A DNA stretch of 63,110 nt, the filler included, from Licmophora abbreviata (lineage: Eukaryota), in assembly GCA_900291995.1 (NCBI GenBank). It is 9 parts of 9 records of this genome, joined end to end, with 100 filler letters (N's around TTAATTAATTAA, not from the genome) between each part and the next. Parts side by side here need not be neighbours in the genome. Positions count along the whole stretch, not along the records: positions 53,536 to 59,109 come from OLMU01001072.1; 8 more parts are not named here. The stretch is one strand, 5' to 3'. The position numbers and the translations under genes are program-made. Position 1 is the stretch's first letter; every line of letters begins with the position of its first letter. Below the pieces are notes generated by a model. The model worked only from the letters and a program-made list of their open reading frames with translations. It made no database searches and was not told the origin of the DNA. Below are positions 55,271 to 58,516 of the stretch, one piece after another.

Positions 55271-56563
55271 ATGGTCGACATCGCCACCCGCGTCTACAAT
55301 CACCGCTGGAAGATGGACCCGATCGTCCGCTCCCTGATCGACACCGATTTCTACAAGCTGCTGATGTGCCAGTCGGTCTTTCGCAACAAGCCCGACACCA
55401 TCGTCACCTTCAGCCTCATCAACCGCACCAAATCCGTCCGCCTGGCCGAGCTGATCGACGAGGGCGAGCTTCGCGCGCAACTCGATCACATCCGCTCTCT
55501 CTCGCTCAGCCGGGGGGAATCCACATGGCTGCGGGGCAACACCTTCTATGGCCAACGCCAGATGTTCACCCCCGAATTCATGGAATGGTTCGAGGCCCTC
55601 CGCCTGCCGCCCTACCATCTCGAAAAGCGCGACGGCCAATACGAACTCACCTTCGAAGGCAAATGGCCCGAGGTCATGCTGTGGGAAATTCCCGCGCTCT
55701 CCGTCCTGATGGAGCTGCGCGCCCGCGCCGTTCTCGGCCGTATGGAGAAATTCGAACTGCAGGTGCTCTATGCCCGCGCCATGACCAAGCTGTGGGAAAA
55801 GGTCGAACGCCTGCGTCCGCTCCCCGATCTGCGCATCGCTGATTTCGGCACCCGCCGCCGCCATTCCTTCCTCTGGCAGGACTGGTGCGTGCAGGCCATG
55901 CGCGAGGGTCTGGGCGACGGCTTCGTCGGCACCTCCAACTGCCTGATCGCCAAGAACCGCGACCTTGAGGCGATCGGCACCAACGCCCATGAACTGCCCA
56001 TGGTCTATGCCGCCCTGGCCAAAACCGACGCCGAACTGGCGCAGGCCCCCTACAAGGTGCTGGCCGATTGGCACGAAGAGCATTCGGGCAATCTGCGCAT
56101 CATCCTGCCCGATACATACGGCACCGAAGGGTTCTTGCGCGCCGCGCCCGACTGGCTGGCCGGCTGGACAGGCATCCGCATCGATTCCGGCGATCCGGCG
56201 GCCGGCGCCGAGGTGGCGATCCGCTGGTGGCAGGACCGTGGCGAGGATCCCCGCAAGAAGCTCATCATCTTCTCGGATGGTCTGGACGCCGACAAGATCA
56301 TCGAGCTGCACCGCCGCTTCCATGGCCGCGTCAAACTCAGCTTCGGCTGGGGCACGCTGCTGACCAACGATTTCCGCGGCCTGACCGAGGGCGACGCGCT
56401 CGCGCCCTTCTCGCTGGTCTGCAAGGCGGTCGCCGCCGACGGCTACCCCACCGTCAAACTCTCCGACAACCCCAACAAGGCAATGGGACCGGCTGACGAA
56501 GTCGCCCGCTACAAACGCGTCTTCGGCGTGGGCCAGCAGGAGGCGATGGCGGTTGAGGTTTAG
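55271..56563 (+). CDS. pncB: Nicotinate phosphoribosyltransferase
   Basis: [34 protein letters not shown] and VKLSDN motifs. Confidence 0.96.
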
Positions 56564-56590
56564 GGCTTGAAAAACATCGACGTTTAGCGA

Positions 56591-57034
56591 GTGTTTTGCT
56601 ACCTAAAGTTGATGTGTAAACAGTTTCTCGTTCAAATCACGGACTCGGATCTCGTAGAACTCCTTTCCGGGCGGCGCCCGGAACTTGAGATCGCTACATT
56701 GCCTCATGAAGTACGATTGCACCTTGGTTGCGCCCGGGACACTGTTTTTCTCTCCAAGGAATCGGCGCGGCACATAATCCTGAGACACGGCGAGCATATT
56801 TCAAACGATGAACTGAAGCTTTTGCCGTGGCTATTGTTTCATGGCCTCTGGTTGGCGGACACACAGCCAACATATGCAGTCGTATCATGTTTTCATGAGG
56901 GGATTGGATACAAAGCAGTGGTCAAGGTCACAAATGACAGACGTCGAACATACGTCACGACCCTGCACCGAACGGCACGTCGCCAAAACAAGGCGCTTAC
57001 CAAAAAAGGGAAGATATTAAGGAAAGCTCTGTAG
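56591..57034 (+). CDS. Lower-GC PBECR/RelE-like (BECR-fold) putative endoribonuclease
   Basis: VFLSKESARHI..RH and YKAVVKVT..RRRTYVTTLHRT with a basic tail, resembling MuF-associated PBECR domains; start uncertain (56591 or 56612). Confidence 0.6.
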   Translation: MFCYLKLMCKQFLVQITDSDLVELLSGRRPELEIATLPHEVRLHLGCARDTVFLSKESARHIILRHGEHISNDELKLLPWLLFHGLWLADTQPTYAVVSCFHEGIGYKAVVKVTNDRRRTYVTTLHRTARRQNKALTKKGKILRKAL

Positions 57035-57160
57035 TTGGTTGCCATGCGGTGGGGCCTGCCATGAACCCCACAATGCGCTACCACTCGCAAGTGGTGCTAC
57101 GGCCGGCAGAATTTCACCGTGTCGCACATGGCTGATGCGCTGGTATGCGGACCAACTACA
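57030..57160 (+). ncRNA. Putative structured, pseudoknotted RNA directly downstream of the nuclease-like gene
   Basis: Stems TGTAGTTGGT/ACCAACTACA, GCCATG/CATGGC, GTGGGG/CCCCAC, ACCACT/AGTGGT and ACGG/CCGT; loop CTGCC complementary to GGCAG. Confidence 0.55.
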
Positions 57161-57400
57161 CGTTGAATTCTTACCAAAAAATGCTCGCAACGTCAAAGTG
57201 AAAGCGTTGATTTACGTAAGAGAGTCAATAACTTACTAACCCTTTGGCAAGACTCACTTTTTCAAATTCTATCCACAGATTTCAAGAGATATCCACAGTT
57301 TTTACCAAGTAAGCGTTGCAGTATTTTTGTCCCTTGATGCGTAAAATATAAAAACTGCTTTGTCGCAAATACCTAAGTCCCCACCGTAATATGCCGCGAC

Positions 57401-57445
57401 TTAAACGATGTTGGGGGATAACCACATATCCTCCAGTCGGTCACA
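57401..57445 (-). pseudogene. Possible remnant of a parE toxin 5' end
   Basis: Reads DRLEDMW right after the antitoxin stop (ParE N-termini have ADLEDIW-like segments), then stops. Confidence 0.4.
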
Positions 57446-57683
57446 TTGATCGATTACGCATCTCCGCCAGAAACTCATCGAAATCGAAGGGTTCCGGTGG
57501 TCCGCTCGCCTCGCCCTCGGCGATCGCCGCCCGAAGCCGCTCCAGCTTTTCCTCTTCCATTTCCAACATCCGCAACCCCGCACGCACCACGTCGCTGGCC
57601 GAGGCATAGCGCCCACTTTCCACCGCACGGGTTATGAAATCGTTAAAGTGATCGCTCAAAACGACCGAGGTGTTGCGCGCCAT
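57441..57683 (-). CDS. parD: ParD-like ribbon-helix-helix antitoxin (CC2985 family)
   Basis: NTSVVLSDHF...SGRYASASDVVRAGLRMLE...EGEASG...FDFDEF; AAGGAG RBS. Confidence 0.88.
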   Translation of the reverse strand: MARNTSVVLSDHFNDFITRAVESGRYASASDVVRAGLRMLEMEEEKLERLRAAIAEGEASGPPEPFDFDEFLAEMRNRSM

Positions 57684-57729: not shown

Positions 57730-58149
57730 TCAATCCTCCCCCTCGATCTTCCCGCGCATCGCCTTCACCTCGCCGCGTACCTTCTTGGCCTTCAGCCGCC
57801 GCTTCTTCGATCCCAGCGTCGGCCGTGTGGCCACCCGCCGCTTGGGCGCCACCAGCGCCTTGCGGATCAGCTCTGCCAGCCGTTCGCGGGCGATCTCGCG
57901 GTTGCGGGCCTGAGAGCGCGTCTCCTCCACCTGGATAATAACCGCGCCCTCCTTGGTCCAGCGCCGTCCTGCCAGCCGTTGTAAGCGCCGTTTGACAACA
58001 TCCGGTAAATGCGGCGACCGCTCGGCCTCGAACCGCAACTCTACCGCCGTCGAGACCTTGTTGACATTCTGCCCCCCCGGCCCGCTGGCGCGGATGAACT
58101 GTTCGGTCAATTCCCAGTCCTCGATGGTGATCGTGTCGGTGATCTTCAT
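57730..58149 (-). CDS. arfB: Alternative ribosome-rescue peptidyl-tRNA hydrolase
   Basis: ASGPGGQNVNKV, RSQARNR and a basic C-terminal tail. Confidence 0.95.
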   Translation of the reverse strand: MKITDTITIEDWELTEQFIRASGPGGQNVNKVSTAVELRFEAERSPHLPDVVKRRLQRLAGRRWTKEGAVIIQVEETRSQARNREIARERLAELIRKALVAPKRRVATRPTLGSKKRRLKAKKVRGEVKAMRGKIEGED

Positions 58150-58254: not shown

Positions 58255-58283
58255 AAAGGGCCGTTCCGATCCCGGAACGGCCC
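58255..58283 (-). terminator. Intrinsic terminator
   Basis: GGGCCGTTCCG-N4-CGGAACGGCCC perfect 11-bp stem, followed by TTT on the minus strand. Confidence 0.7.
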
Positions 58284-58352
58284 CCTAAAGGCTAGCGAAG
58301 GTGGCCCGGTTAGGACGCACCAATTCGGGGGATCATCGCCCCAGGGACTGCC

Positions 58353-58409
58353 CTAGGACGCACCCTCCCAAACTGTTCCGGCACCTCGCTCCAAATCCTT
58401 TATAGACAC
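58353..58409 (-). CDS. Putative 18-aa sORF (MSIKDLERGAGTVWEGAS) within a small transcript
   Basis: GTG start 7 nt after AGGAGG in AAAGGAGGTGGTCCA; TTGACA at 58473-58468 upstream; terminator downstream. Confidence 0.5.
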   Translation of the reverse strand: MSIKDLERGAGTVWEGAS

Positions 58410-58516
58410 TGGACCACCTCCTTTCGCTTTGTTGAACTTATCCCCAGCCTGCCACAGATTTTCGGCGTGTCAAAACAAAATGCGGTAGGGCATGAGAATT
58501 TTTCCGCAGGATATGG

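Follow-up and report, generated by a model that had tools for sequence, protein, structure and literature searches.

A predicted colicin-like BECR ribonuclease and a convergent cloverleaf RNA as a candidate toxin and RNA antitoxin between pncB and arfB

How might a cell hold in check a phage-type toxin whose gene has no immunity gene upstream of it? This question is raised by an islet of lower GC content between pncB and arfB in a 63,110-nucleotide (nt) stretch of DNA (referred to here as the window, filler included) joined from nine records of the Licmophora abbreviata assembly GCA_900291995.1; the islet comes from record OLMU01001072.1. The original prediction for the islet was a stand-alone PBECR/RelE-like nuclease, a phage-derived toxin domain domesticated as an addiction or defence gene, with a structured RNA downstream as its likely neutraliser. 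Our data indicate that genes of this family are tightly linked to a covarying cloverleaf RNA and that the RNA and the catalytic His of the protein are lost together. We propose that the islet may be a two-gene mobile module in which a predicted colicin-like BECR ribonuclease (RNase), probably one that cuts tRNA, is joined by a convergent cloverleaf RNA that in all likelihood has a transcription unit of its own.

The open reading frame (ORF) at 56591-57034 on the plus strand encodes 147 amino acids from a GTG or 140 amino acids from an ATG at 56612. Since the closest relatives are 139-142 amino acids long and align from this ATG, the toxin (56612..57034) is most likely the 140-amino-acid product. 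It is basic (isoelectric point 9.84; 23 Lys and Arg residues versus 14 Asp and Glu residues), and its gene has a GC content of 0.50 and a third-position GC content (GC3) of 0.53, compared to a GC3 of 0.84-0.85 for soxB, araC, pncB, and arfB. The whole islet (56564-57440) has a GC content of 0.475. Only 48 nt separate the pncB stop codon from the toxin ATG, which rules out an upstream immunity ORF. Thus, a basic ORF of 140-147 amino acids, atypical codon usage in a lower-GC islet, and the absence of an upstream immunity ORF, all part of the original prediction, are confirmed. The gene and the RNA described below are each present once in their own assembly.

We found that the AlphaFold2 (AF2) model of the toxin (pLDDT 89.5) has the helix and four- to five-stranded sheet of the BECR fold. 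Among viral proteins the model matches phage MuF C-terminal domains and polyvalent proteins with E values down to 1.8e-8, while among solved chains it matches BrnT, colicin D, contact-dependent inhibition (CDI) toxins, and RelE/HigB (Foldseek E > 0.006, Z 5-6.9), and the top matches are almost all BECR/RelE-type RNases. Pfam returned PBECR3 (PF18812) alone, at E 0.17 and 12.3 bits, which is below the gathering cut-off of 30; of 73 aligned relatives, 19 are hits to PBECR3 at E ≤ 0.1, the strongest at 1.1e-7, and MuF_C hits were obtained for 4. The Atlas neighbours of the toxin are PBECR2, PBECR3, and MuF_C clusters, and a profile search returned 237 clusters at E ≤ 0.001; among the 150 that were listed, solo proteins of 130-140 amino acids predominate. 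The domain also occurs as the tail of phage MuF head proteins of approximately 400 amino acids. Close relatives of the toxin protein itself were not found in viral contigs, and a PHROGs search gave one weak irrelevant match.

The residues conserved in the family are H54, H59, K105, T117, H119, and R120; H59 is kept in 72 of the 73 relatives, and K105 and Thr/Ser117 in 70 each. The available part of Iyer et al. 2017 (PMC5512222) describes a His-bearing helix with a Thr/Ser as the mark of active PBECRs, and the window toxin has this layout (H59, T117). PBECRs have been grouped as colicin-like, and characterised colicin-like members mostly cut tRNA, according to a preprint of 2026 (10.64898/2026.08.28.747851). 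Because the conserved residues fit PBECR better than RelE, we prefer the colicin-like/PBECR branch. RelE, HigB, and BrnT share the fold, no RelE-family Pfam match was obtained for the toxin, and ParD is unlinked to the family (0 of 58 other toxin loci). By its model, the toxin is a BECR-fold protein of the PBECR branch in which the His, Lys, and Thr predicted to be catalytic are all intact, and it is a new member or subfamily of this described clade. Fold and residues together predict RNase activity, and the colicin-like kinship makes a tRNase likely. The sequence pattern given in the original prediction, the kinship with phage MuF C-terminal domains, and the BECR fold (a non-BECR fold was not obtained) are all supported, whereas the label PBECR/RelE-like fits better in its first half.

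Behind the toxin gene we found a second conserved element. The 100 nt 3' of the stop codon are kept behind all three genome homologues, of which one follows pncB, one follows an HNH-like ORF, and the last lies at a third location. Read on the minus strand, this element forms a four-way junction with a conserved cloverleaf core at 57041..57132. Its order is stem P1 (57132-57125/57048-57041), a 4-nt linker, a 5-bp D-like arm (57120-57099), one A, a variable arm (57097-57077), and then, beyond a linker of 5 nt, a T-like arm of 7 bp (57071-57049) that stacks on P1. A kissing pair, CUGCC (57109-57105) with GGCAG (57060-57056), joins the loops of the D-like and T-like arms. The topology is that of a tRNA with a Watson-Crick elbow. 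The predicted full small RNA (57030..57160, approximately 131 nt) is closed by an outer stem (57151-57160/57030-57039) that appears in the fold and in locus L003; its 5' end is placed from the promoter, and the 3' arm of the outer stem (57030-57039) overlaps the toxin stop codon.

The RNA was first traced by pattern scans in viral contigs and metagenomes, and a covariance model gave 106 matches in 100 chosen loci. Across 103 distinct sequences, 97.7% of cells are paired and 24 of 31 pairs show double changes, three of the five kissing pairs included, in an alignment fitted to the model; these values are well above shuffled and slid controls. An unfitted alignment of 18 sequences has double changes at 15 of 31 pairs. 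Compensatory variants of the kissing pair occur in four loci (L130, L166, L183, L196), with further ones in L246, L249, L271, and L292. The folding energy of the window RNA on its own is not significant (z -0.7 to -1.55), and we accept its structure because covariation across relatives supports it; the structured RNA foreseen beyond the gene is real on that ground and not on its folding energy. Rfam had no match for the RNA, whether taken from the window or from 13 related loci, and blastn against 50,697 phage records returned none, with one true plasmid copy elsewhere.

We asked whether the RNA accompanies the toxin domain. Of 99 metagenome RNA matches, 52 lie beside a gene of the family, 28 are orphans, and 19 are on contigs too short to tell. 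The viral pattern scans gave 48 matches, 8 of them chance; among the other 40, duplicates included, 25 follow a MuF-PBECR gene of approximately 400 amino acids and 15 are orphans. Within the phylum, the PBECR domain is present in 10 of 401 genomes, and in 9 of these the frame is long, as is usual for MuF fusions. Strong RNA matches are present in 5 of these 10 genomes (seed genome included), one has a weak match, one is truncated where its contig stops, and the remaining three lack a match; diverged, convergently placed stems and a -10 box can be made out by eye in the latter three.

A set of 80 MuF loci, picked by their MuF domain, served as a control. Strong RNA matches occur behind 16 of 24 His-bearing tails and behind none of the His-less tails (0/5), short MuFs (0/40), or other tails (0/11), and every one is on the opposite strand directly past the stop codon. 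Furthermore, in four lineages a His-less protein without the RNA has a nearest relative with both His and RNA. The closest such pair, L256 (His-less) and L248, is 74% identical, and a MuF-domain tree, built without 12 rows in which the motif used was missing, places the two as sisters (100/100); the other pairs are L316-L319/L295 (67%), L321/L293 (63%), and phage B23/L050 (58%). Mu gp30 lacks the His, overlaps gp31 with no gap, and has no RNA match; in Ochrobactrum phage POA1180 the His is retained and a weak RNA match is found at the stop. No conserved small immunity ORF was found after the toxin gene. In L042 and L107, approximately 300 nt separate the MuF-PBECR gene from the RNA and may hold an inserted small gene.

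Several observations bear on the strand of the RNA. A predicted sigma-70-type promoter for the RNA (TTGACG, 18 nt, AAGAAT) lies further out in the window, at 57167..57196 on the minus strand, with equivalents in L003-L005. Of 36 loci, 26 have the higher promoter score on the strand opposite the gene and 6 have the lower one there, and the mean opposite-side score is 11.46 versus 9.94 ± 0.21 for shuffles of the same DNA (the loci are related). On the minus-strand reading, G.U pairs outnumber A.C pairs 93 to 26 in an alignment that was itself fitted to that strand, two near-invariant wobbles being set aside; one of these flips from U.G to G.U in four sequences. Of six tRNA or tmRNA genes near RNA copies, five are co-oriented with the RNA, and copies in arrays each have their own promoter before them and a hairpin or U-tract after. 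A count of tetraloops (7 versus 4 of 37) was uninformative on strand. Most likely, then, the RNA is a minus-strand transcript that starts at a promoter of its own and runs towards the toxin stop. The putative toxin promoter (TCGACG, 17 nt, TACCTA, 6 nt, ATG; 56577..56611, plus strand) was placed by eye, with alike spacing in L003, L004, and L145, and was missed by a consensus promoter scan; the toxin mRNA is likely leaderless and without a Shine-Dalgarno sequence. The role of likely neutraliser given to the RNA in the original prediction is supported by the linkage and the His control, the RNA being most likely a separate convergent transcription unit rather than an element of the toxin mRNA.

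Since the RNA is kept only with the catalytic His and sits where other MuF toxins have an immunity ORF, we consider it likely that it serves in self-protection, as an antitoxin of one kind or another. For the narrower reading, in which the RNA would neutralise the RNase by binding it, probably by mimicking a tRNA, we estimate a probability of about 0.5; the shape of the RNA is what favours a substrate mimic. A number of points weigh against this reading. The structural Z-scores of the toxin model are all below 8. The likeness of the RNA to tRNA is topological only: ARAGORN with default settings called no RNA copy in 50 loci (relaxed settings called many chance genes and were not used as evidence), CCA at the 3' end is sporadic among the RNA copies, and the variable arm has no fixed anticodon loop. 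Invariance of the RNA core is partly built in by the search patterns, and the unfitted G.U count is weak (13 versus 7). Four RNA-library runs, available as contigs only and from an approximately 91% identical relative, were flat and carry no information on transcription; their contigs have the order pncB-cassette-parD as in the window. Eight of the 24 His-bearing MuF loci have no model match, and their divergent cloverleaves, recognised by eye, reach weak scores only. Finally, the loci are related and partly duplicated, so that the counts are not independent events.

The same data have to be weighed against other roles for the RNA. One of these is antisense control, in which the transcript would pair or collide with the toxin mRNA and lower its expression, while the fold would do no more than stabilise the RNA. 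A convergent arrangement is usual in antisense (type I) systems. In a comparison of 13 MuF loci the distance from the RNA end to the stop codon is between -10 and +28 nt; in the window the two overlap, and a terminator was not detected at the RNA 3' end there. Joint loss with the His fits this as well. An antisense transcript would, however, be powerless against a protein delivered in a phage head, and it leaves aside both the orphan copies without a target gene (28 of the 99 metagenome matches, the arrays, and a tRNA array) and the conservation of tertiary kissing pairs and junction bases; moreover, type I toxins are small hydrophobic peptides, while this one is a basic enzyme of 140 amino acids. 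Because of the tertiary conservation, the orphan copies, and the delivery by MuF virions, we favour action on the protein, and regard antisense control as improbable. Somewhat less improbable, although still unlikely, is a ribonucleoprotein in which the RNA works together with the toxin, whether as cofactor, as guide, or as a substrate reserved for it; the RNase might process the RNA, for instance, or MuF might bring it along into the next cell. This reading would draw on the same linkage and joint-loss data and on the suggestion of Iyer et al. (PMC5512222) that PBECRs may act on particular RNAs and not on tRNA or rRNA. Such a partner would leave self-protection unexplained where there is no protein immunity gene, the RNA has no variable guide-like segment of fixed length, and the diversified orphan arrays look like stockpiled immunity genes.

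Two further explanations are far less probable. In Mu-like phages the RNA stands among head morphogenesis genes and has complementary loops, as might be expected of a late-operon or packaging element resembling the kissing-loop packaging RNA (pRNA) that hitchhikes with the toxin domain. This is largely refuted, as the RNA is missing from 40 of 40 short-MuF and 5 of 5 His-less loci and is kept in solo chromosomal cassettes without phage genes. The poorest candidate is a type II antitoxin, either the ParD encoded 400 nt away or a small peptide from the short ORFs that overlap the RNA; ParD is missing from all 58 other toxin loci, the overlapping ORFs (26-71 amino acids) have unlike starts and ends, and RNA lengths vary in all reading frames. 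We therefore rejected the ParD, peptide, and pRNA-like roles.

We also asked how the module is distributed. The islet is absent from all 30 best-matching pncB loci, drawn from 301 family-level genomes, and in L355 arfB follows pncB by approximately 150 nt, an empty site; the comparison of related genomes, called for in the original prediction, thus returns a patchy presence. IS1595-family transposases lie beside six solo cassettes (L004, L156, L159, L187, L200, L202; 46 neighbour ORFs scanned), and other solo cassettes are near a restriction subunit, a reverse transcriptase, or core genes; the window islet holds no transposase. The cassette looks like mobile cargo rather than the domesticated gene first envisaged. 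The proposed defence role has no direct support, as PADLOC (2023 library) matched none of four proteins.

Orphan RNA copies occur in tandem arrays of 2-4 diversified copies (L136, L166, L183, L196). The arrays of L166 (494-1415) and L196 (699-1135, minus strand) hold 3-4 diversified copies with their own promoters, and a MuF-like fragment opens L166. On the plasmid L130 an orphan RNA lies among immunity and haemagglutinin fragments, and in L115 (2170-2744) a copy sits within a phage tRNA array on the same strand (Thr, Ala, Pro, an uncalled tRNA-like gene, the RNA, Trp, Ser). Phage tRNAs reportedly counter tRNases. Other cloverleaves may accompany tails of other PBECR-like families: convergent ones were seen by eye in L305 and L306, L239-L242, and L283, L296, L303, and L311, and a convergent cloverleaf with a canonical TTCGATT T-loop follows the MuF stop in L274 and L294. 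With a second RNA model, 5 of 22 loci had a hit next to the stop, and these were all weak (E 0.15-1.6). An acceptor/T-arm stacking score of our own making proved noisy, as it picked out 17 of 22 His-bearing loci and 7 of 33 short MuFs but also 8 of 22 control windows. Because the model scores are weak, this extension is just a lead.

We next compared the module with known systems. AbiF is Cas13-ancestor-like rather than BECR, and the abiF-motif RNA, which we take to be a catalogued RNA motif, differs from the RNA here, which is without an Rfam match. The idea proposed here is nevertheless the same, since AbiF is a prophage toxin neutralised in cis and in trans by a directly binding structured non-coding RNA, as stated in the available text of 10.1101/2025.04.15.648962. 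Type III toxin-antitoxin systems (ToxIN, CptIN, TenpIN; excerpts of PMC5086642) likewise combine an endoribonuclease toxin with a pseudoknotted non-coding RNA, and orphan antitoxin mimics borne by phages are described for them, such as pseudo-ToxI (PMC3594212, in the part covered). By analogy, the module would work like a type III system, but its layout differs from the classical one, where the toxin shares an operon with a tandem-repeat antitoxin and a terminator that precede it: the upstream gap is too short for these, and a single RNA without tandem repeats lies downstream on the opposite strand, convergent and with a predicted promoter of its own. A pseudoknot with compensatory changes is present, formed by kissing loops on a cloverleaf rather than of the H-type, and the toxin here has the BECR fold. 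MuF polymorphic toxins (Jamet et al. 2017, PMC5576092, as far as its accessible sections go) also place the toxin domain at the C-terminus of a temperate-phage head protein, but there a small immunity ORF follows the toxin gene. With type I systems the module shares the convergent antisense layout and differs in having orphan RNAs. The four-way cloverleaf, the T-like arm on an acceptor-like stem, the loop-loop elbow, and the place in phage tRNA arrays recall tRNAs and the allo-tRNAs found near toxin-antitoxin systems (PMC5389517, excerpts), from which the RNA departs in its Watson-Crick elbow, the lack of a conserved CCA and canonical anticodon arm, and the lack of an Rfam tRNA match. PBECR and MuF-C domains have been described (PF18812, PF18810, PF18819), and the window toxin falls below the cut-off of any one Pfam family; the portion of PMC5512222 covered names no RNA partner or immunity factor for PBECRs. 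Neither the RNA family nor its pairing with the toxin was found in Rfam or in searches of full-text literature, a coverage outside which lie supplementary motif catalogues and most subscription journals, so that an anonymous earlier listing is possible.

The islet is flanked by pncB (55271..56563, plus strand) on the left and an arfB-like RF-1 domain gene (57730..58149, minus strand) on the right, both from a Pfam scan. The location between pncB and arfB was given correctly in the original prediction, which did not mention an orphan parD antitoxin gene in the interval (57441..57683, minus strand; Pfam ParD E 1.6e-30). This neighbour is outside the module and is followed by a few codons that resemble a parE start. 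In the approximately 91% identical relative, 57302-57429 is swapped for other sequence, and the interval made up of parD and 57300-57440 is therefore read as a decaying toxin-antitoxin hot spot. The AT-rich tail at 57200-57300 carries TATCCACAG, presumably a DnaA-box-like sequence, and TCAA/TTGA motifs that recur past the RNA in L003-L005; it may be a relic of a mobile element end. Upstream of arfB, an Rfam CC2171-like small RNA (58258-58433, minus strand) scored 48.5 bits (E 1.7e-8), short of the gathering threshold (75). The gene content of the window is alphaproteobacterial, and with 29 Mb in 7734 contigs the assembly is likely mixed.

We hypothesize that the cloverleaf RNA would bind the RNase as a tRNA-shaped decoy and hold the enzyme inactive. 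As the domain is the tail of the MuF head protein in Mu-like phages, the RNA would there be the immunity factor of the lysogen, replacing the usual small protein. Reasoning from type III systems, the solo form might serve for addiction or abortive defence: loss of the cassette or transcription shut-off would free the RNase. Orphan RNAs might provide acquired immunity or counter-defence. More tentatively, and with odds somewhat on the wrong side of even, colicin-like tRNases (MuF-borne PBECRs and solo mobile copies) may be widely neutralised by dedicated tRNA-mimic RNAs, each subfamily with its own cloverleaf and some still with a canonical T-loop, while phages and bacteria would build up acquired immunity by stockpiling orphans in diversified arrays and tRNA clusters. 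Phage virion proteins commonly carry PBECR domains, whose target and immunity factor are not named in the literature covered; the pairing described here gives them a concrete candidate partner. The 0.6-kb solo cassette of the window is its simplest version, and nature offers matched pairs in which one member has the catalytic His and the other lacks it. If true, this reading would bring the BECR fold among RNA-neutralised toxins, offer one explanation for tRNA-like oddities in phage tRNA arrays along with a new RNA family, and mean that in a polymorphic toxin family an RNA replaces the protein immunity gene, which would be a new kind of RNA-based toxin immunity.
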